NCBI GenBank assembly: GCA_037440825.1
Contig: JBBITJ010000003.1
Coordinates: 1-53,732 of the forward strand
Reading direction: 5' to 3'
Source of the DNA: Candidatus Micrarchaeota archaeon
Lineage (GTDB): Archaea > Micrarchaeota > Micrarchaeia > Anstonellales > Bilamarchaeaceae
DNA length: 53,732 nucleotides
The position numbers and the translations under genes were made by a program. The notes beneath the pieces were generated by a model. That model saw only the letters and a list, made by a program, of their open reading frames with translations, searched no databases and was not told the DNA's origin. Positions 7,849-34,756 of this stretch are shown piece by piece. Numbering within the stretch: position 1 is the stretch's first letter; every line of letters starts with the position of its first letter.

Positions 7849-8760
7849 ATGGCGTTCCTGTTCGAAACCCTTGTGCCGACAATCGGCTTCCTCATGGTGC
7901 TGATCATAATGCTCGCCTACGTTGGCGGCAAGATCTTCCGCATCCCGTCCTGGGAGGCGTACTTCAATGTGGAGCTCCACAACCTCGTGTTCGCGGTCCT
8001 GCTGCTGAGCGTAGCGTTCGCAGCGTACGAAGGGATGAACTCGCTCGCGTACGACGTAGTTGGCGCGAGCCCGGTGCAGGCGTCCATGTCCTTCCTCAAC
8101 AGGATAACGAACAAGGGCGTGCTTCCAATGTACAAGGACCTGCTCGGCATAGAGGCAGGGACCGCGATGAGCAACTCGTTCTACATCAGGATGGGGCCCG
8201 GAGTATGGTCCTACACCAACAAGATCGAGCCGGGCGCGGACGCGATCCTCTCCATGGTGAGGCTCATGAGCATGGGCCTCATAGTGATATACGGAAGCCT
8301 GAGCATCCAGTACATCGGGCTCAGCCTGGTGGATTTCGGGATGCCGCTCTCGCTCTCGCTCGGAGTGCTGCTCTTCATACTTCCCTCCACGAGGGAGGCG
8401 GGCGCGTTCCTCATGTGCTTCGCATTAGCGTTCCAGATAATATTCCCGTCGCTTTACGCGCTCAACCAGGTGATACTCGATGACATGGCGTGCGCCCGCG
8501 CGACTGCGGAAGGCAACGCGTGCGAGCCCTACGATGCGTATATTCCTGAAATCGCGCTCTTCGGTGTGCAGGCAAGGGGAGTTTCTTTCCTGTCCTACCT
8601 GGTCCCGCTGGCGAGCCTGGCGAACTTCGAGCTTCTGATTCCATTCATCAATGCAATGGCACACCTCACGCTGGTCTCGCTTTTCCTGCCGGCGCTCGTG
8701 CTCACGATAACGATAGCGTTCATAAACGCGCTCACCAAATACATACTGGGAAGGATATGA
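7849..8760 (+). CDS. polytopic membrane protein, paralog 2 of 6 (most divergent)
   Basis: A GGTGA SD lies 2 nt upstream of the ATG. It has multiple TM helices, the core 'LFILPSTREAGAF...QIIFP' and the tail 'ALTKYILGRI'. Confidence 0.75.
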   Translation: MAFLFETLVPTIGFLMVLIIMLAYVGGKIFRIPSWEAYFNVELHNLVFAVLLLSVAFAAYEGMNSLAYDVVGASPVQASMSFLNRITNKGVLPMYKDLLGIEAGTAMSNSFYIRMGPGVWSYTNKIEPGADAILSMVRLMSMGLIVIYGSLSIQYIGLSLVDFGMPLSLSLGVLLFILPSTREAGAFLMCFALAFQIIFPSLYALNQVILDDMACARATAEGNACEPYDAYIPEIALFGVQARGVSFLSYLVPLASLANFELLIPFINAMAHLTLVSLFLPALVLTITIAFINALTKYILGRI

Positions 8761-10175: not shown

Positions 10176-11396
10176 ATGACCCCCTGCACTGCACAACGTG
10201 GTTTCCATTCGAGTGTTCTCGACTGTCTGTTGAACGTTGCGTTCAACATCCGGCCCCCGGTTCCGGGTTTCGGTCTCGCCAGCTTCGGGAAGCTCGCGTT
10301 CGCGTTCCTGCTCCTGGCTGCCATTGCCGGCGCGCAGGGATACGATCCTAATTACAACAACCCGGAAGATCTCAGCAAGACCGTGAACGAGAATATAGAA
10401 ATAATAAAGAATTCCTCCCTGATCGCGGCCTGCACCGCAGCTCCCGGCTCGCATGATTTCCAGACTTCCGTGCTGTCCAATTCGCTCCTCGCGCTGTTCA
10501 TAATGGCGATGGTCATAGGGCTCATGTACATGGCAGGGAACTTCCTCCAGGTGCAGAGCGTGCTCGTGCTCGCGAGGCAGGAGATAAACGAGTTCCTGAT
10601 AACCGCGCTCATCGTCGTGTTCTTCACCATGATAATCTCCGCGCCCACTTATTTCGGCATAGACCTTTTCGACCAGGCAACGACTTACAGCTACAAGATG
10701 CTCTACAAGGTCGGCTCGGTCTCGTCTGTGCTGGTGAGCGCGAACATCGTCCTCAATTCCATCTACACGATCTACATACCGTTCGGGCAGATAAGGAAGG
10801 CGCTCACGATGCAGCTTGGGCCCGCGCTGCGGCCCATAATAGACGGCGTTTCGTTCTCGCTCCAGTTCCTCATCACCACCTACGGCGAATGGACGGTGTT
10901 CGTGTTCATGTTCTGCTTCATCCAGCGTTGGTTCCTGCCATTCTTCTTCCCGCTCGGCCTGATAATGCGCTCATTCCCACAGACGCGCGGAGGGGGCAAC
11001 GCCCTCATCGCATTGTCCATAGCCCTCTCCACAATCTACCCGTTCATGTTCTTCGTGGATTCCGTGATCTTCGCGAAGCAGTTCCCCGAGGACACCAGCA
11101 TAGGCGCGTATTTCGAGCAGGCGGTGCGTTCGGTGTTCGCCGCGCTCGGAATCGGAGGCGTGGCCGCGGTGTTCTTCGGCTTCTCGCTCATATTCGTCTC
11201 GCCCATACTCGTGGGCGCGCTGCTGCTCATCTCATACTTGATGTTCGACGTCGGGTGGGAAGTCCTCCACCTGGTGATGATCTTCAGCATAATCCTGCCT
11301 GTATTGAACATATTCCTCACCCTCTCGTTCACGAGGGAGATATCGAAGCTGCTCGGGACGGAAATAAGCCTGGGGGCGTTCGCAAAGCTGATATGA
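10176..11396 (+). CDS. polytopic membrane protein, paralog 4 of 6, with unusual N-terminal extension
   Basis: The only in-frame ATG is at 10176. A 38-aa extension encoded by heptad arrays precedes the signal peptide 'KLAFAFLLLAAIAGAQG'. It carries the motifs 'LMYMAGNFLQVQS' and 'IMRSFPQTRGGGNA...STIYP' and the tail 'GTEISLGAFAKLI'. Confidence 0.8.
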   Translation: MTPCTAQRGFHSSVLDCLLNVAFNIRPPVPGFGLASFGKLAFAFLLLAAIAGAQGYDPNYNNPEDLSKTVNENIEIIKNSSLIAACTAAPGSHDFQTSVLSNSLLALFIMAMVIGLMYMAGNFLQVQSVLVLARQEINEFLITALIVVFFTMIISAPTYFGIDLFDQATTYSYKMLYKVGSVSSVLVSANIVLNSIYTIYIPFGQIRKALTMQLGPALRPIIDGVSFSLQFLITTYGEWTVFVFMFCFIQRWFLPFFFPLGLIMRSFPQTRGGGNALIALSIALSTIYPFMFFVDSVIFAKQFPEDTSIGAYFEQAVRSVFAALGIGGVAAVFFGFSLIFVSPILVGALLLISYLMFDVGWEVLHLVMIFSIILPVLNIFLTLSFTREISKLLGTEISLGAFAKLI

Positions 11397-20349: not shown

Positions 20350-20418
20350 CCGGGGCTGGAAACTCGAAACAGAAAACCACAAGCTGAAAAGACGCGAAGA
20401 AAGTAATAAGAAACTGTT

Positions 20419-21100: not shown

Positions 21101-22726
21101 TTACCTCCTTCTCTTGTACACGAAGAGGTAGAATGCGACTGCGAGCACTGCAAATGCCACTCCCGCGTAAGTCGCCAGGACCGTCATGTCGTAGCTGACA
21201 TTGACCGTGACCCTTCCATCCTCGTAGCCGGTCTTCTTCACTGTAAGTGTGTATGTGCCCGGCTCGGCGAACCTGAGCGTCACCGTGCCGTTCTTCCCTG
21301 CGTACGTCTTTCCAGCAGCCGAGACTGTGAAATCATCCATGCGCTGGCCGTTCTCGTCAAGCACGCTTATTGTGAAATTCTTGTCCTCGGTCACGCTCCG
21401 GGGCGCATCCACGATCATGACGAACTTCTGTGCATTCTGGTCCCTGAACAGCACCACGTAAGTGAAGCCCTTGCTCTCCTGGCCCGCGCTGTCCGAAACT
21501 CTGCATTCCACGAAGACATTCCCGAATTCGTAGTTGTTCGGGTCAAAGATGTAGAACCAGTCGTTTCCTGAGACCTGCGCCATGTTCCACGTGCCGTTGT
21601 TCACCCTCACCGCGACCTGCGCGCCCGGATATTGCGAGAACACCCTTCCGCTCACGTTCACGACCTTGTACCCTATGCTCTCGCCGGTGAACGGCGAGTC
21701 TATCGTGCAGCCTCTGTCTACGACGTACGAGTATATCAGCCCGTCATAGGACCCGAAATAGAGCATGCCGCCGTAGAACGCTGGGTTGTGTACCCAGCCG
21801 TGCGCAGAGAACGCGATCACCACGTTCCCGTTCTTCGTGTCGACTATGTATATCTTGTTGTCGTTGCTCCCGGTTATGAGCATCTCCCTTCCCCCAAGGG
21901 AAGTGATTACCATGCTGCCCTGCACAGCTTCAGCAGTCTTCCTCTTCCAGATTAGTGTCCCGTTCTTGGAGTTGACTGCGTATATGTAGCCGTCGTTGCT
22001 CCCGAAATACACCACGTCGTTGGAGTATATGGGATCGGACATTATCCAGCCGCCCGTGTCGAACGTCCAGAGGATCTTTCCGGTGTATATGTTGACCGCA
22101 TTCATCTTGCCGTCGTTGCTGCCTATGTACACCACTCCCAGGTGGAATTCCGGCCTGGATTCCCAGAACGGGCTCACGCGCGTGCGGCTCCTCACGCTCC
22201 CGTTTATGTCCGCGACGACCAGCTCGTCAGAAGCGCCGTATATGAGCGTGTCGTTGAGCAGCAGTATGTCGGTGAGCGGCATATCGTTCTCGTGGATAAC
22301 CCACAGGAGCGTGCCTTCGTAGTCGTATTTCTTGACCCCCTTGTCCGTGGATATGTAGATGAATTCGGGCGAAGCCGCCATCCCGTAGATGGTCGTCTCG
22401 TTCACCTTATGCTGGATATTGCCGCTCCTGTCGAGTATTACTATGCGGGAATTGGATATGCCGACTATCTGGCTTCCCGGGCTTTCAAGCTCCTTGATTT
22501 TCTCCTCGACATACGTCCTCCACGAGATTATGCCGTTCTGCTGGTACGCGCAGTAGATGAATCCGTCGTAGGATGCGGCGACCACCTTGTCGCCGAAGAA
22601 AACCAGGTTGCTCTCTATGGGCCCGAACGTGAGCAGGCTCCAGCTCTGGCCGGCAAAGGATGCGGAAAGAAGAATGATGAATGCCAGAAAAAGGCGGTTG
22701 CGCGTTCCGAGTTCCCTGGCTGGCAT
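21101..22726 (-). CDS. PQQ-like beta-propeller repeat surface protein with C-terminal Ig/PEGA-like domain and tail anchor
   Basis: It has repeated 'DG.IY(A/I)V....G..(L/I)W' blades, 'GTYTLTVKKTGYEDGRVTVNV', a C-terminal TM helix plus 'KRRR', and the N-terminal anchor 'LFLAFIILLSASFAG'. The start is uncertain (22726 or 22777). The track start at 22882 overlaps rpl11. Confidence 0.75.
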   Translation of the reverse strand: MPARELGTRNRLFLAFIILLSASFAGQSWSLLTFGPIESNLVFFGDKVVAASYDGFIYCAYQQNGIISWRTYVEEKIKELESPGSQIVGISNSRIVILDRSGNIQHKVNETTIYGMAASPEFIYISTDKGVKKYDYEGTLLWVIHENDMPLTDILLLNDTLIYGASDELVVADINGSVRSRTRVSPFWESRPEFHLGVVYIGSNDGKMNAVNIYTGKILWTFDTGGWIMSDPIYSNDVVYFGSNDGYIYAVNSKNGTLIWKRKTAEAVQGSMVITSLGGREMLITGSNDNKIYIVDTKNGNVVIAFSAHGWVHNPAFYGGMLYFGSYDGLIYSYVVDRGCTIDSPFTGESIGYKVVNVSGRVFSQYPGAQVAVRVNNGTWNMAQVSGNDWFYIFDPNNYEFGNVFVECRVSDSAGQESKGFTYVVLFRDQNAQKFVMIVDAPRSVTEDKNFTISVLDENGQRMDDFTVSAAGKTYAGKNGTVTLRFAEPGTYTLTVKKTGYEDGRVTVNVSYDMTVLATYAGVAFAVLAVAFYLFVYKRRR

Positions 22727-22785
22727 TCCGCTTTTCGAAACGGGAAACCCAGAACTGCAAACTGCCTTTTCTTGCATGCTTGCCC

Positions 22786-23502: not shown

Positions 23503-24024
23503 CTACCACGGGACTTTCTTCCATCCCAGCCTGTTCGCCGCGAAGTTGGAGGCCACGTGCAGCACATAGGTGGCTATGAACAGGAACAGGAGCGGCTCAA
23601 GGGTGAATAGTGATGCAGACGCGAGCGGATGTACGGCGAGTAGCGCTATCACGATGAACATGAGCTGGTCGAGAATGAACGGCTTGCCCGGCTGCACGCC
23701 GAATCTCCTCTTGAGGAAGCTTCCCAATGCGTCTCCGATCATCGTTCCGAGCGCCATGAGCGCGAATCCGGCGAACTGCACCGCCGCGGTGGGAAAGAAT
23801 GGGCTCAGGTAAACAAGCGACACTATTCCGCCTGCGGCTATTCCTCCGAACACCCCTGCGAAGAATCCGCGCACGGTCTTCCCGTCCCCGAATATCCTCC
23901 TTCCGTCCGGAAAGTTTTTCCCGAAATCCATGGGCGTCCCGCCGCCGAGCAGCACCGGAATGGCATTGGCCACGTACGCGGGCAGCATGAACACAAGCAG
24001 GTAAATCACGGTCTGGGCGTCCAT
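23503..24024 (-). CDS. carS: CDP-archaeol synthase (CarS, DUF46 family)
   Basis: 173 aa with about 5 TM helices. It has 'DGRRIFGDGKTVRGF' and 'GDALGSFLKRR', characteristic of CarS. Confidence 0.75.
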   Translation of the reverse strand: MDAQTVIYLLVFMLPAYVANAIPVLLGGGTPMDFGKNFPDGRRIFGDGKTVRGFFAGVFGGIAAGGIVSLVYLSPFFPTAAVQFAGFALMALGTMIGDALGSFLKRRFGVQPGKPFILDQLMFIVIALLAVHPLASASLFTLEPLLFLFIATYVLHVASNFAANRLGWKKVPW

Positions 24025-25435: not shown

Positions 25436-26059
25436 ATGGCAAAGGCATTCATATTCTCTATAGACGCGTTTGTCGCATTCACGTTCGTGCTCATAATGAT
25501 ACATTCCCTCATCTTCATCGCCGCGGTCCCGTCCAGCTATTACGGCGGGCTCACGCAGGCTAATTACCTTGCGAGGGACACCGTAGCGGCGCTCGCAGCC
25601 GCTAACTCGAGCAAGCTCATATGCGACCCCGCCGATTCCGGCTACAACGAGTGCGTTTCGGACTATTCGCAAGTAACTCTCCTCGACTACCTGATGAGGC
25701 ACAGGGACGCTGACACCATAAGGGCGCACGTGGGCGCGCTCATTCCGGAGCAATACGGCTACGCGCTCGAGCTCTGGGATTCAGGCACCGGATCATGGAC
25801 AACGCTCTACGACAGCGCGGATTACGATTATTCCGAGGATCCGCACGCGAAGTCCTACCACAAGCTCATGGTATCTTCGCATTCGCTCTTCTTCGGCTAC
25901 GACAGCGACGGCGCCCGCGGTTTCCACATCCCCTACTGCTACATAACCTGCAACCCCGGCTCCTACGGCGGCTGCCCCACTCCCTGCGACGAGCCGGTTT
26001 CCAATTACGACGAAGGGCAGGCGGACCTCGGGCTGGTGAGGCTCACGGTTTACAGGTGA
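25436..26059 (+). CDS. type IV prepilin-like (class III signal peptide) protein 1
   Basis: The N-terminus 'MAKAFIFSIDAFVAFTFVLIMI' has a short charged leader, a hydrophobic helix and an acidic residue at about +6. The TATA-like 'ctttttaaag' lies about 27 nt upstream. Confidence 0.65.
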   Translation: MAKAFIFSIDAFVAFTFVLIMIHSLIFIAAVPSSYYGGLTQANYLARDTVAALAAANSSKLICDPADSGYNECVSDYSQVTLLDYLMRHRDADTIRAHVGALIPEQYGYALELWDSGTGSWTTLYDSADYDYSEDPHAKSYHKLMVSSHSLFFGYDSDGARGFHIPYCYITCNPGSYGGCPTPCDEPVSNYDEGQADLGLVRLTVYR

Positions 26060-26063
26060 ATGC

Positions 26064-27587
26064 ATGGCCCGGAAATCCAGGGGATTCTTCTTCGTGCTGA
26101 TCTCGTTCATACTGCTGCTCTATATATTCCTCTACCTCGCGGCTTGGATAAGCGCGATAGAGATATCGGAAAAGGCATCATCCGAGAGGTTCAGGACCGC
26201 GTCGGTTTCAGGCATAATGTCCCAGCTCACCAAGGAGCGGCTTGACAATTTCTTCGACATCGCCGGCTATTACGCCCTGTTCAAGATAAACAACCATTCG
26301 TCGGATCCCGCGCACCCCCTCCAATACGACCCTGCGGACGAGCTGCGATACCTGAGGGGCGCGTTCTTCGGCTGCGTTTTCAACGGCACCTCAGATGATT
26401 TCGAATCTGTTTCGCTGGATTACTCGGACGATGAAAAAGGCACGTACACGTTCTACGCATGGATGGACAGCCTGAACCGCACGCTTTCGCAGGCTGGGCT
26501 GGAGGTGGTCTCGTTCAGCGTGTCCAACGAGAATTTCACGCAGCTGGACCACGTGACGTTCAACGCGTCCATGGACGTTTCCATATACGTGAGGGACCGG
26601 CTTTCCACGGTTTCAGTGAACAGGAGCTTCAGCCTAAGCCGCCAGTTCAACGTCACCGGATTCCCTGACCCGATGATCACGAGGGAATACAGGCTCATAG
26701 AGCCCTCGTCGACTGTGGAGCGGCAGATATTCTTCAGGAACATATCTCTTTCGAACCTCACTCCGATAAACGTGATCAACGGCACGCAGGGCCAGGGCTT
26801 TTTCTACGGCCCAATGATCGCTGCTGCTGACGTGACCTCCACCAACCCGATACCATCCCAGAGGTGGCAGTACATCCTCGTGGGCAGCTTCGAAGACATA
26901 GTGGACGTGGCGAATTACGGCCAGTTCGGCGCGTACATCGTCACGAGCGCTGTGGAGTATAACAGCTACGACGGCTGCAGTCCGAGCGAGGAAGGGACTT
27001 TCAACGCCATCCAGAACAGAACCTCTTCGTGCAACGTGACGATCGCTTACCCTACTGACAGGCCGTTCGCGGTCATCGAAGGTCTTGATATCAATTCGTT
27101 CCGCGGCCCGGGAGGGGAACACCACGCGCTTTTCATAGCAGAGCGCTCGGTAGAGCAGGTGGCGAACAACCCTGCGGACAAGCTGGGCGAAGTGGTGGCT
27201 TACGACATCGAGGACCTGAGGGACGCCATGATATGCACATATTTCTTCCCGTCCGGCCGCGGCCCTTCGTATGCGCAGCGGCTCTCGTCTGATGCGATTT
27301 CCCTCTCAAGCGCCTCTTTCGGCATGGAGACGTTCCTGCTGGGCATGTGGGCAGGAGGGAGCCAGCTTCCAGATTACGAGAATTACAGCCGCGTGGACTG
27401 GGAATTCTTCAACATGCTGGAGGGAGTGAAGTTGCGGGGCATGGCTGGATGCAAGAGCCCCTCAATGTGCGCCGCTGCAGTAGGCTCTGACGCACAGGTG
27501 GGGCAGTTCAGGCTCACGGATGAATCCATAAGAGAATACGGCGCAGGGGGCATCGCCTGCAACGACGGCCGAGCGGGGTGCGACTAA
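26064..27587 (+). CDS. large pilin-like/adhesin-like protein 2 (507 aa) with prepilin-like N-terminus
   Basis: It starts 'MARKSRGFFFVLISFILLLYIFLY' and has many sequons in the body. It is 4 nt downstream of protein 1. Confidence 0.65.
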   Translation: MARKSRGFFFVLISFILLLYIFLYLAAWISAIEISEKASSERFRTASVSGIMSQLTKERLDNFFDIAGYYALFKINNHSSDPAHPLQYDPADELRYLRGAFFGCVFNGTSDDFESVSLDYSDDEKGTYTFYAWMDSLNRTLSQAGLEVVSFSVSNENFTQLDHVTFNASMDVSIYVRDRLSTVSVNRSFSLSRQFNVTGFPDPMITREYRLIEPSSTVERQIFFRNISLSNLTPINVINGTQGQGFFYGPMIAAADVTSTNPIPSQRWQYILVGSFEDIVDVANYGQFGAYIVTSAVEYNSYDGCSPSEEGTFNAIQNRTSSCNVTIAYPTDRPFAVIEGLDINSFRGPGGEHHALFIAERSVEQVANNPADKLGEVVAYDIEDLRDAMICTYFFPSGRGPSYAQRLSSDAISLSSASFGMETFLLGMWAGGSQLPDYENYSRVDWEFFNMLEGVKLRGMAGCKSPSMCAAAVGSDAQVGQFRLTDESIREYGAGGIACNDGRAGCD

Positions 27588-28063
27588 TGAGTTCCCTGTT
27601 CCCAGTTTCGAGTTTTGCGGCGAAACCAGAGATCCCCGGTCCGAAACCGCGCAATGCATGCCTGAAGGGACAGTCGTCCCTGGAAATGCTCGTAACCGTG
27701 GCCGCGCTGCTCGCATATTCCCTGCCTATCGTGCTCCTGGTATTCTCGTTTTCCTACATGAAGCTGGAGGACGTGGCGCTCACGCAGGGGCGCGCCACAG
27801 TCCAGCAGCTCTCCGACGGCGTGAATTCCGTCTATCTCCAAGGAGAGGGCGCAAGGCACTCCATGCTCATAGACCTTCCGTCAGGCACGAGGAATCTCAC
27901 CGTGTCAGGAAAGACGATAACTCTCTACATTTCAGCCACAGGCGGCACATATTCCATTTCCCACCCTATTTTCGCCAACGCGAGCAGCTTCACGATTTCG
28001 GACCGCGTGGGGCTCATAAAAATCACGATGAGGATGGAAGGTGGACAGGTGATTCTGGAATGA
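27587..28063 (+). CDS. type IV prepilin-like protein 3 with long leader
   Basis: The taATG overlaps the upstream stop. A 27-aa leader ends in 'LKGQ', followed by 'SSLEMLVTVAALLAYSLPIVLLVF' (Glu at +5). No in-frame ATG lies closer to the hydrophobic helix. Confidence 0.65.
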   Translation: MSSLFPVSSFAAKPEIPGPKPRNACLKGQSSLEMLVTVAALLAYSLPIVLLVFSFSYMKLEDVALTQGRATVQQLSDGVNSVYLQGEGARHSMLIDLPSGTRNLTVSGKTITLYISATGGTYSISHPIFANASSFTISDRVGLIKITMRMEGGQVILE

Positions 28064-28653
28064 TTCCCAACCTCCCAATGGCATCAAAGCGCGGTTCCCA
28101 GTTCCCAGTTCCCAGTTCCGGCGCGATACCCAAAACTCAAAACAGGAAACCCCTTGTATCTACCAGCACTATGCCGGCACTGCGAGGCCAGGTGGCCACG
28201 GAGTTCTTCGTCTATTCCGCAGTCTTCCTCATAATCGTGCTGGCAGCGTACTTCAGCATATTCTTCGTGCAGAGCGCGGAAGTGGCGAACAAGGAAGCCC
28301 TCTACGTGAAATGGTTCGGCGAGCGCTTCGCATCGAACCTGAACACAGCGATGAGCAGCGGCGAGGGATTCTCGATGAAGATGGCGTTCTCTCCATACAT
28401 CCTGGAGAAGCCCTACTCGGTGTACATAAAGCCTGCACGCGCGGGCAGGAACGGCTTCGTGTTCATAACGTGGAGCGCGGGCAACGTGACCTATTCTTAC
28501 CCCATAGGTAACATGAACATAGGCGCAGGCGACAGCTGCGTGCACGCCATATCTTCCCCTGACGGCGCATACTACGAGATCACGAGCGCGAGAGGGGAGC
28601 TCTGGTTCGAGAACGACGGCAGCTCTATAACCATCACACAGGGATGCACATGA
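28060..28653 (+). CDS. type IV prepilin-like protein 4 (long-leader start; alternative short-leader start at 28171)
   Basis: ATGA overlap at 28060. The sequence '...MPALRGQVATEFFVYSAVFLIIVLAAYF' has Glu at +5. The ATG at 28171 would give a classical 7-aa leader. Confidence 0.6.
   Translation: MIPNLPMASKRGSQFPVPSSGAIPKTQNRKPLVSTSTMPALRGQVATEFFVYSAVFLIIVLAAYFSIFFVQSAEVANKEALYVKWFGERFASNLNTAMSSGEGFSMKMAFSPYILEKPYSVYIKPARAGRNGFVFITWSAGNVTYSYPIGNMNIGAGDSCVHAISSPDGAYYEITSARGELWFENDGSSITITQGCT
28094..28121 (+). repeat. tandem heptanucleotide repeat (GTTCCCA)x3 plus a partial copy
   Basis: 'gttcccagttcccagttcccagttccgg' is read directly from the sequence. It is followed at 28129-28153 by an inverted degenerate array 'cccaaaactcaaaacaggaaacccc'. 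Confidence 0.9.
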
Positions 28654-29162
28654 AAGTTTCCAGTCTCCAGTCTCCTGTTTCGAAGTGCGGATTTAAGAAA
28701 GGCCAGTACTTCAGCTTCGACGCGATAGTCGCTTCGGTGCTCTTCGCGCTGACATTCATAACCCTGGTGAGCTACTGGTTCAGCGTGAAGTCCGGCTTGG
28801 AATCCAAGGATGAGGAGATGCTCAAGGAGGCCGCGAGGATAAGCGACGCGATGCTCAACCCTGGCCTGTTCCAGAACTCTTACAGCGATCCGCGCGTCAG
28901 CCTGAGCCGCATAAAGTCGTTCGAGGGCAAGAGCCAGGATGAGCTGAAGGAGATGTTCAACACCCCCTACAATATCTCCCTGTTGGTGGATACGGAAGCG
29001 GGCACCCGCATAGCGGCCGTGGGCCCTGATCCGACCGACCCGGCATATTCATACATATTCTCCAATGTTGTCAACACAGCCAAGATGCGGAGGATCGTCG
29101 TAATCCAGGTCAACGAGAGCTACGAAACTCCTGCTGCGCTGGATATCTACCTGTACAACTAG
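28644..29162 (+). CDS. type IV prepilin-like protein 5 with long leader
   Basis: There are ATGs at 28644 and 28650, and the latter forms an ATGA overlap with the upstream stop. The leader ends in 'FKKGQ', followed by 'YFSFDAIVASVLFALTFITLVSYWF'. Confidence 0.65.
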   Translation: MHMKVSSLQSPVSKCGFKKGQYFSFDAIVASVLFALTFITLVSYWFSVKSGLESKDEEMLKEAARISDAMLNPGLFQNSYSDPRVSLSRIKSFEGKSQDELKEMFNTPYNISLLVDTEAGTRIAAVGPDPTDPAYSYIFSNVVNTAKMRRIVVIQVNESYETPAALDIYLYN

Positions 29163-34687: not shown

Positions 34688-34756
34688 TCTCTTATAGAGG
34701 CTGGAAACCGGAAACCACAAGCTGAAAAGACGCGGAGAAACTAATAAGAAACTGTT

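Follow-up and report, generated by a model that had tools for sequence, protein, structure and literature searches.

A dispersed heptamer element as the probable origin of long leaders in three pilin-like genes of a Micrarchaeota archaeon

Results

The window analysed here, contig C3 of 53,732 nucleotides (nt), belongs to an 875-kb genome of a Candidatus Micrarchaeota archaeon that is assembled in 45 contigs (estimated completeness, 95.6%; GC content, 0.55). The archaeal character of the genome is apparent from a CDP-archaeol synthase gene at 23503-24024 and from many proteins with class III signal-peptide N-termini. Five co-oriented genes at 25436-29162 encode proteins with such N-termini, and in three of them, referred to as genes 3, 4, and 5, arrays of a degenerate heptamer (GTTYCSN, here called heptads) lie between the predicted start codon and the predicted cleavage motif [KR]GQ. 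The relevant features, including the Shine-Dalgarno (SD) sequences, are as follows.

27574-27589, plus strand: start region of gene 3, with an SD-like GGGGTG (27574-27579) located 7 nt before the ATG at 27587-27589
27587-28063, plus strand: gene 3, class III signal-peptide (pilin-like) protein, MSSLFPVSSFAAKPEIPGPKPRNACL-KGQ-SSLEMLVTVAALLAYSLPIVLLVF..., N-terminal reading MSSLFPVSSFAAKPEIPGPKPRNACLKGQ...
27590-27664, plus strand: leader insert of gene 3, 75 nt, in frame
28047-28062, plus strand: start region of gene 4, with the SD AGGTGA (28047-28052) located 7 nt before the ATG at 28060-28062
28060-28653, plus strand: gene 4, pilin-like protein, predicted long form MIPNLPMASKRGSQFPVPSSGAIPKTQNRKPLVSTSTMPAL-RGQ-VATEFFVYSAVFLIIVLAAY..., N-terminal reading MIPNLPMASKRGSQFPVPSSGAIPKTQNRKPLVSTSTMPALRGQ...; a short form would begin at 28171
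28063-28182, plus strand: leader insert of gene 4, lineage-specific and stop-free, boundaries approximate
28644-29162, plus strand: gene 5, pilin-like protein with a KGQYFSFDA motif, N-terminal reading (MH)MKVSSLQSPVSKCGFKKGQ...
28656-28694, plus strand: leader insert of gene 5, about 39 nt, consisting of the heptads GTTTCCA GTCTCCA GTCTCCT GTTTCGA (28656-28683) plus 11 nt

As a preliminary description of the window had stated, the start codons of all three genes overlap upstream stop codons and are followed by heptad arrays and then by the [KR]GQ motif. The ATG at 27587 overlaps the TAA stop (27585-27587) of an upstream gene for a 507-amino-acid (aa) protein in the form TAATG, gene 3 ends in a TGA that overlaps the ATGA at 28060, and the ATG at 28650 (also ATGA) overlaps the TGA stop of gene 4, with another ATG two codons upstream at 28644. 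The K of KGQ in gene 3 is encoded at 27665, 26 codons after the start, and the R of RGQ in gene 4 at 28183, 41 codons after the start; KGQ of gene 5 (28698) follows the ATG at 28650 by 16 codons and that at 28644 by 18. The distance of 21-44 codons given previously was right in kind and slightly off for gene 5.

In the insert of gene 3, the forward heptads GTTCCCT GTTCCCA GTTTCGA GTTTTGC (27591-27618) precede a degenerate reverse arm, the GAAAC cores of which lie at 27622-27626 and 27643-27647, and the last three nt of the insert, CTG (27662-27664), stand where the start ATG of the relatives is. In gene 4, a perfect (GTTCCCA)x3 plus GTTCCGG (28094-28121) is followed by the reverse arm CCAAAAC TCAAAAC AGGAAAC (28130-28150), while the insert of gene 5 encodes VSSLQSPVSKCGF between MHMK and KKGQ. 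Tandem Repeats Finder bore out the perfect repeat of gene 4 (28094-28119; period, 7; 3.7 copies; 100% matches) and reported a further repeat in gene 5 (28655-28675; period, 7; 3.0 copies). Genes 3 and 5 contain no in-frame ATG, GTG, or TTG between the array and the motif, which agrees with the earlier remark that neither has an alternative in-frame ATG nearer to the hydrophobic segment. Gene 4 has the in-frame ATG at 28171, 111 nt after that at 28060, which lacks an SD and would give MPALRGQ.

All three N-termini exhibit the class III motif, in which [KR]-[GA] precedes Q (or a small or hydrophobic residue) and then a hydrophobic helix of ~20 residues (KGQSSLEMLVTVAALLAYSLPIVLLVF, RGQVATEFFVYSAVFLIIVLAAY, and KGQYFSFDAIVASVLFALTFITLV). 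However, class III leaders are short, from a few to ~12 residues, whereas those of genes 3, 4, and 5 have 26, 41 (or 5), and 16-18 residues, in comparison with 1-10 in orthologues; the excess corresponds to the heptad insert. Searches of Pfam and NCBIfam at E <= 0.01 assigned no family to the five proteins encoded at 25436-29162 and yielded a single spurious match below threshold, and the designation pilin-like therefore refers to the N-terminal motif and its conservation. A homologue of prepilin peptidases (Peptidase_A24, PF01478; 34.4 bits at a cut-off of 26.5) is encoded at C1:69682-70017. The type IV filament ATPase (PF00437) and platform (PF00482) models gave four strong matches and eight matches, respectively, all outside the window; these assembly genes are located on C6, C9, C11, C14, and C23, where they adjoin other class III genes.

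We compared the genome under study (G000) with seven genomes of the same genus that carry the same operon (G001-G007), with one further contig carrying this operon (L076), and with a genome of a different family (G025). In the relatives, gene 3 begins with MKGQ (G007), MRGQ (G001), MKAQ (G006 and G002), MMKGQ (G004), MKEMKAQ (G003), or MGSMKGQ (L076), and its ATG overlaps or abuts the upstream stop after a GRGGTG SD. The context GRGGTG-N7-ATG is found in G001, G002, G004, G006, G007, and L076, and G000 has kept both SD and ATG. However, G000 contains 75 extra nt before AAG-GGA-CAG, an insert that is absent from G001, G002, G003, G004, G006, G007, and L076. At the same site, G005 carries a 63-nt in-frame insert that encodes a different peptide, MSFQFQVSGSGAKHGEQNAKYLKAQ, and likewise ends in CTG, so that the old ATG position reads CTG in both genomes.

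A similar picture emerged for the other two genes. Gene 4 of the relatives begins with MILKGQ, MNLKAQ, MKRKGQ, MSKTHARKGQ, or MSRGQ (the last in L076, caAGGTGATTCTAGAATGAGCAGGGGCCAG) with an ATGA start overlapping the gene 3 stop. The preceding AGGTGA/GGGTGA-N7-ATG is retained in G002, G003, G004, G005, G006, and L076 and, as AGGTGA-N7-ATGA (28047-28063), in G000. The ~110 additional in-frame nt after this ATGA are specific to G000 and absent from every relative compared. Gene 5 of G007 begins with MHMMNLQKRRKKGQ, while that of G000 reads MHMK, 13 heptad-encoded residues, and KKGQ. In G004, a 72-nt in-frame heptad element separates MHMK from MKGQ, and L076 has an independent in-frame heptad leader of ~50 aa (~150 nt). 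An alignment of 26 gene 5 homologues showed an invariant KGQYFSFDA and leaders of 1-9 aa in 20 of them. Since array-free relatives have short leaders at the same SD and ATG, with all three genes of the form M-x(0-10)-[KR][GA]Q, the long leaders represent insertions.

SD motifs are in use in this organism: genome-wide, SD-like words peak at positions -12 to -9 before the starts of open reading frames (ORFs; 46-51 vs a background of ~10). Conserved SDs precede the upstream ATGs of the three genes, whereas nothing resembling an SD precedes the ATG at 28171 or the CTG at 27662. The inserts between ATG and motif are stop-free multiples of three in gene 3 of G000 (75 nt) and G005 (63 nt), in gene 4 (111 nt), and in gene 5 of G004 (72 nt), and the gene 5 leaders of G000 and L076 are also in frame and stop-free. 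Five more class III genes of G000 carry stop-free in-frame inserts (C13:18074, C13:4696, C14:4775, C14:4357, and C2:44063). Among the class-III-like genes of this genome, every leader of at least 12 aa contains heptads, and all the others are 1-10 aa long. Moreover, genes 3 and 5 have lost their proximal starts, a decay that would be expected only with the upstream start in use. From these sequence data, translation of the arrays into extended N-terminal leaders is very probable for genes 3 and 5 and probable for gene 4, as the preliminary description had supposed for its heptad leaders.

Alternatively, the arrays could be untranslated intercistronic or 5'-untranslated-region (5'-UTR) elements, with translation starting at the ATG at 28171 in gene 4 and at noncanonical codons, such as the CTG at 27662, in genes 3 and 5. 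MPALRGQ would indeed be a leader of the length typical of the family, the ancestral start position of gene 3 now reads CTG in both G000 and G005, and among the arrays elsewhere, many are located in the 5' UTRs of cytoplasmic genes, immediately ahead of the first start codon. At C4:24257, a 67-nt element sits out of frame behind the retained ATG of an unrelated gene whose true start is downstream, creating an upstream ORF of 10 codons. This locus contrasts with the class III leader inserts, all of which are stop-free multiples of three, a regularity not expected without translation. Given also that the SDs accompany the upstream ATGs and that gene 5 has no alternative ATG, GTG, or TTG and no CTG at the ancestral position, we consider untranslated arrays unlikely.

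The (GTTCCCA)x3.7 tract at 28094-28119 is the only perfect heptamer repeat of at least three copies in the 875-kb genome, but it is one member of a large and mostly degenerate family. Within the window, 12 near-matches of a two-unit probe were found against 4.0 expected, and none of 100 shuffles reached 12. In the whole genome, strict arrays (two or more copies of GT[TC][TC]C[CG]N) numbered 160, compared with 5-11 in shuffles, and runs of GTYYC/GRRAC cores numbered 194 at period 7 vs 20-42 at the other periods between 5 and 13. In total, ~135-190 (GTTYCSN)n arrays are dispersed in G000. Two units are present in 140, three in 36, four in 17, and five in 1, which gives 54 arrays of at least three units and none of more than five. 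The array-free G007 contains 23 two-unit runs and none of three or more in 339 kb; this background implies that ~60 of the 140 two-unit runs of G000 may be due to chance and that ~135 arrays are real. The pattern read backwards had essentially no matches in the relatives and none in G000 and the array-rich relatives. No period-7 family of another sequence was found in the array-free G003 (GC 0.36) or G007 (GC 0.535).

The element is built of (GTTYCSN)2-4, in many cases with a degenerate inverted arm (NSGRAAC)n behind it, and spans 30-110 nt in total. Reverse-complement cores occur within 60 nt downstream of 59 of the 194 arrays, as opposed to upstream of 13; genome-wide, there are at least 10 forward...reverse composites and none in the reverse-then-forward order. 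The arrays populate spacers, 5' UTRs, tRNA flanks and introns, and, in frame, conserved genes. They cluster at gene boundaries, as at least one flank is noncoding for 61% of them (38% of random positions), and those within coding sequences are antisense in 41 cases and sense in 8. The preliminary description had treated the arrays as a feature of exported proteins, an association that is not supported, as they also precede cytoplasmic genes, flank or interrupt tRNA genes, and enter an aminoacyl-tRNA synthetase.

This synthetase, a class I enzyme (PF00133 plus an anticodon-binding domain) encoded outside the window at C1:18334-20886, contains the in-frame heptad insert AVSGSQSPVSSQAKPKTRN. This forward...reverse element of 16-17 aa lies within the span of the catalytic-domain model match, and the orthologues of G005 (80% identical) and G007 (74% identical) lack it; at this site, 15 ancestral nt were replaced by 63 nt with no target duplication. 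In-frame heptad inserts of 8-18 residues, again absent from the orthologues, were detected in four other conserved genes. Altogether, the in-frame repeat occurs in five conserved genes, the orthologues of which lack it, and in eight class III leaders.

Arrays of three units are abundant in G000, G004, G005, and G025, rare or absent elsewhere, and completely lacking in four of the same-genus genomes. In a comparison of 119 syntenic junctions between G000 and the array-bearing G005, arrays were confined to G000 at 10 junctions, confined to G005 at 7, and shared at 1. Against the array-free G007, the corresponding numbers were 16, 2, and 0. Filled and empty sites, which include stop/start junctions, 5' UTRs, and regions between divergent promoters, differ by clean blocks of 40-110 nt. 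Such fast turnover of sites between species argues against a site-specific function and for tolerated insertions. Taken together, these comparisons lead us to favour, with moderate confidence, the explanation that the long leaders are secondary: a dispersed heptad element appears to have inserted at the stop/start junctions of the three pilin-like genes, where it would be tolerated as passenger DNA.

A different possibility is that the arrays are functional cis elements that regulate subunit expression or stoichiometry as binding sites for a lineage-specific protein that recognises DNA or single-stranded RNA, as weak U-tract terminators or insulators, or as promoter elements resembling the B recognition element (BRE). 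The strict polarity, with forward...reverse pairs only, would fit such a role, as would the sense-specific placement around tRNA genes described below, the excess of antisense over sense arrays in coding sequences (41 vs 8), and the persistence of cores in gene 3 of two diverged species at the same site; furthermore, bacterial heptamer arrays have been proposed as sites for post-transcriptional regulators (PMC4679880). However, the two array-bearing species share the array position at only 1 of 18 occupied junctions, four of the seven same-genus genomes with the same operon have no arrays, and arrays are found inside an essential synthetase and tRNA introns. In addition, A/T-rich boxes follow 17% of the arrays vs a background of 11%, a coupling to promoters or BREs too weak for a general rule, and RNA structure does not exceed that of shuffled sequences (z = +0.6 to +1.2). 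A regulatory role is, in our judgement, rather improbable.

The preliminary description had pointed to related peptides in the leaders. These peptides (FPVSS, SQFPVPSS, and QSPVS, with a KPKTRN-like peptide from the reverse arm) are real and are fully accounted for by the 7-nt period. A 7-nt unit translated in a fixed frame cycles through the three frames and gives the same cyclic heptapeptide whatever the frame of entry, so that (GTTCCCA)n always yields repeating VPSSQFP. The shared peptides are a by-product of this period and not a selected signal, and the idea of a common functional leader peptide was not supported. Moreover, species with an insert at the same site have differing leader peptides, as seen in gene 3 of G000 and G005.

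Heptad arrays are also associated with tRNA genes, 15 of 41 of which have an array inside or within 100 nt, in regions that make up 1.4% of the genome. GRAAC-sense arrays are located upstream of tRNA genes, several of them abutting TATA-like boxes, and GTTYC-sense arrays are located downstream. Heptad elements make up the introns of tRNA genes on C8 (His), C13 (Ala), and C1/C39, while the majority of tRNA introns in G000 contain none. In G005, a 44-nt forward...reverse heptad element interrupts tRNA-Ser(UGA) (L067, G005:C13, ~8527-8724) exactly at the canonical intron position 37/38, whereas the G000 orthologue (C4:27611-27698) has no intron; either this intron arose as a heptad element or such an element invaded an intron that was already present.

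These introns raise the possibility that the element is excised from RNA, as a bulge-helix-bulge intron or by other processing, and that excision restores short leaders and tRNA anticodon loops. However, the three coding inserts fold no better than shuffles and exhibit no evident bulge-helix-bulge motif. A hairpin or bulge-helix-bulge structure was rejected on folds of 27575-27680, 28055-28185, 28640-28715, and 22690-22760, which did not surpass those of shuffles (z from +0.6 to +1.25). Moreover, the coding inserts are always stop-free multiples of three, which would be needless if they were spliced, and invasion of pre-existing introns explains the tRNA association in a genome where tRNA introns mostly lack heptads. 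Excision from RNA is thus extremely unlikely.

The preliminary description had further suggested a slipped-strand switch, in which (GTTCCCA)3.7 at 28094-28121 gains or loses units, shifts the frame entered from the ATG at 28060, and turns one pilin-like subunit on or off. The tract is a perfect repeat with a unit not divisible by three, lies in the predicted translated 5' part of gene 4, and is unique in the genome in its perfection. It is situated between the SD-served ATG at 28060 and RGQ, in the path of ribosomes starting there, and a 7-nt change would shift the frame, with both other frames running past the ATG at 28171. That unit numbers can change is illustrated by a reverse-sense heptad array in a conserved gene at C2:25902-25913, which reads KLETQN... 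in G000 and KLETGNPGLETGG... in G005; the latter is longer by 7 residues (21 nt, exactly three units), and the frame is kept.

Nevertheless, the tracts of known contingency loci, such as the tetra- and pentanucleotide tracts in surface genes of the host-adapted bacteria Haemophilus and Neisseria, are usually much longer, and 3.7 units are too few for frequent slippage. The in-frame ATG at 28171 may also bypass the tract and rescue expression, and the tract is just one of more than 130 related arrays, most of which are degenerate and located where switching would be meaningless; the frameshift logic applies to gene 4 only. Three short contigs, C39, C40, and C41, are 97-99.8% identical to C1 79348-83265, 44780-47420, and 13821-16271, respectively, and presumably are strain variants retained by the assembler. 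The three other arrays covered by this comparison differ between the 97-99% identical contigs by substitutions only and show no 7-nt indel. Two metagenome scans returned no near-identical contig, and searches for related genome contigs and for contigs encoding the 507-aa protein returned none. Phase variation of gene 4, although mechanistically possible, is in our view highly unlikely. If it did occur, the switch would have arisen when a stop-free heptamer element colonised the leader, it would constitute a contingency locus in a very small archaeal genome, and it would show that dispersed elements can seed phase variation of surface filaments.

Discussion

The passenger explanation suggests the following course of events. 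Each insert would have been placed just behind an ancestral SD-preceded ATG that overlaps the upstream stop, and ribosomes would still initiate at this ATG. Inserts would survive only if the frame stays open, and the element would then be translated as an extension of the class III leader, which the A24 prepilin peptidase of the genome is predicted to cut between the G and the Q of [KR]GQ. With the leader removed by the prepilin peptidase, an extension would cost little and be tolerated. The arrays would accordingly be passengers at permissive sites rather than a device for export or switching. Their spread may have involved growth in place from unit-like seeds, combined with conversion between copies, or else a trans-acting activity.

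Several points weigh against this explanation. Two species with proteins only ~57-66% identical both retain recognisable heptad cores at the insertion site of gene 3, which could reflect a constraint on a DNA or RNA motif or recurrent insertion into a hot spot, and not pure neutrality. The term insertion names an outcome, as neither a mobilising enzyme nor a target-site duplication was found. The pilin-like proteins match no curated family, and both initiation at the upstream ATGs and cleavage of leaders of 16-41 aa are themselves predictions. Gene 4 could start at the ATG at 28171, which would make its array an intercistronic spacer. Finally, the in-frame argument is partly circular where the proximal start is missing, because inserts out of frame would kill the gene and hence escape view.

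Dispersed heptamer repeats are known from bacteria: Xanthomonas carries GGGAATC, and Nostoc PCC 7120 carries GGGGA(C/T)T (Rehm et al. 2015, PMC4692102). The Nostoc repeat corresponds to the short tandemly repeated repetitive (STRR) heptanucleotides of cyanobacteria, first seen in Calothrix (cited in PMC4692102). As in those genomes, the arrays of G000 represent one family at more than 100 sites per genome, are over-represented outside genes, typically have 2-4 units, include many convergent inverted pairs, lie within ~50 bp of starts and stops, and have no known mobilising enzyme or function (PMC4692102). However, the host is an archaeon with a 0.88-Mb genome, and the GTTYCSN/NSGRAAC unit lacks regular G-tracts, so that a G-quadruplex offers no general explanation; about half of the units are GTTTCGN, the complement of which (NCGAAAC) has a single G, and no preference for four units was observed. 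In contrast to the bacterial arrays, those described here do not exceed five units and occur in frame in coding sequences, in class III leaders, and in tRNA introns, locations which that paper does not describe (PMC4692102).

A second parallel is offered by the direct repeats of TAACTGA found in marine Beggiatoaceae, cyanobacteria, and Bacteroidetes (MacGregor 2015, PMC4679880). They too are heptamer direct repeats, present in 2-6 copies at ~170 sites, many just upstream of start codons, with a patchy phylogenetic distribution and no evident transfer mechanism (PMC4679880). Unlike the present unit, which is stop-free in all six frames and is apparently translated in several genes, TAACTGA contains stops, is essentially intergenic, and has been proposed as a 5'-UTR site for binding of a regulator (PMC4679880).

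With repetitive extragenic palindromic (REP) sequences, bacterial interspersed mosaic elements (BIMEs), their REP-associated tyrosine transposases (RAYTs), and MITEs (miniature inverted-repeat transposable elements), the heptad family has in common short dispersed extragenic repeats with inverted arms. However, Y1/RAYT transposase (PF01797), reverse transcriptase (PF00078), and TnpB (PF07282) genes are absent from G000, and none of them tracks the arrays across 10 genomes. We therefore rejected an identity as MITEs or REP-RAYT elements, which would call for a cognate transposase, terminal inverted repeats, and a target-site duplication. Apparent TGA/ATG duplications at a few junctions were discounted as target-site duplications, since they were not reproduced at the best-conserved and best-defined site, that in the synthetase gene, where terminal inverted repeats are lacking as well.

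Another parallel is found in the Rickettsia palindromic elements (RPEs), reportedly described as 'selfish DNA in protein-coding genes'. These are short palindromic repeats of a reduced genome that reside in frame in conserved protein and RNA genes and add a tolerated peptide. The in-frame colonisation of conserved genes and RNA genes by short repeats in a reduced genome is shared by both families. However, RPEs measure 100-150 bp and are nonperiodic, whereas the elements of G000 measure 30-110 nt, have a 7-nt period, and do not fold better than shuffles. The likeness to slipped-strand contingency loci is confined to a perfect repeat, with a unit that is not a multiple of three, in the predicted 5' coding part of a surface-filament gene; the 3.7 units, the downstream in-frame start, and the membership of the tract in a genome-wide family set gene 4 apart. 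Leaders comparable in length to 16-41 residues occur in bacterial type IVb pilins, and if the archaeal prepilin peptidase processes leaders of 26-41 residues, its known substrate tolerance would be widened.

A literature search on heptanucleotide repeats in archaea retrieved no relevant report. What is new here is the occurrence in an archaeon of heptamer arrays that are stop-free and tolerated in coding sequence, whereas bacterial arrays have so far been described as intergenic. A unit free of stops in every frame allows the arrays to enter coding sequence, and in this archaeon they have reached an essential synthetase, cleavable leaders, lipoprotein linkers, and tRNA introns. Cleavable leaders of class III seem particularly permissive as landing sites, with an insert in ~8 of ~20 such genes. 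The passenger explanation also accounts for an odd annotation, as leaders of 16-41 residues without a proximal start would be the footprint of a dispersed repeat. For start calling in such genomes, it suggests keeping the SD-preceded ATG that overlaps the upstream stop.

Additional observations

Four further heptad arrays of the window are listed below; an Rfam scan of the window detected three tRNAs only.

10260-10273, plus strand: array of two units, GTTCCGG GTTTCGG, within the extended N-terminus of membrane paralog 4
20357-20377, minus strand: heptad array GTTTTCT GTTTCGA GTTTCCA, 41-48 nt after tRNA-Arg(GCG), noncoding
22704-22748, no strand assigned: convergent (forward...reverse) heptad pair in front of the pyrroloquinoline quinone (PQQ)-propeller gene (minus strand)
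34702-34715: second copy of the 20357-20377 array, after tRNA-Arg(CCG), noncoding

The proximal ATG of the PQQ-propeller gene gives a normal signal peptide; the element in front of it is therefore partly 5' UTR and partly codes for the n-region (RELGTRN). The genes for tRNA-Arg(GCG) and tRNA-Arg(CCG) share a nearly identical trailer of ~40 nt, ACAGTTTCTTATTA..TTTTCAGCTTGTG (20371-20417 and 34716-34755, minus strand), and both trailers continue with the heptad array and the common sequence CCAGCC.

Outside the window, ARAGORN called a 'tRNA-Pyl(cta)' and a 'tRNA-Stop(tta)' at C1:82988-83536 and C39:174-294. Placing the intron at the canonical position 37/38 instead gives the anticodon loops CTTCTAA (Arg-UCU) and CTTTTAA (Lys-UUU), and these genes are probably ordinary intron-containing tRNA genes and not suppressors. 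The intron of the Arg-UCU gene is a heptad array.

The divergent promoter region at C14:22883-23205 measures 321 nt in G000 vs 154 nt in G007, with both TATA-like boxes conserved. The extra DNA is made up of two heptad elements, one located between the boxes and the other in the leftward gene's 5' UTR. Finally, the GC content spreads widely within the one assigned genus, from 0.36 in G003 through 0.49 in G005 and 0.535 in G007 to 0.55 in G000, and the median protein identity to G000 is 62-66% for G007 and G005.

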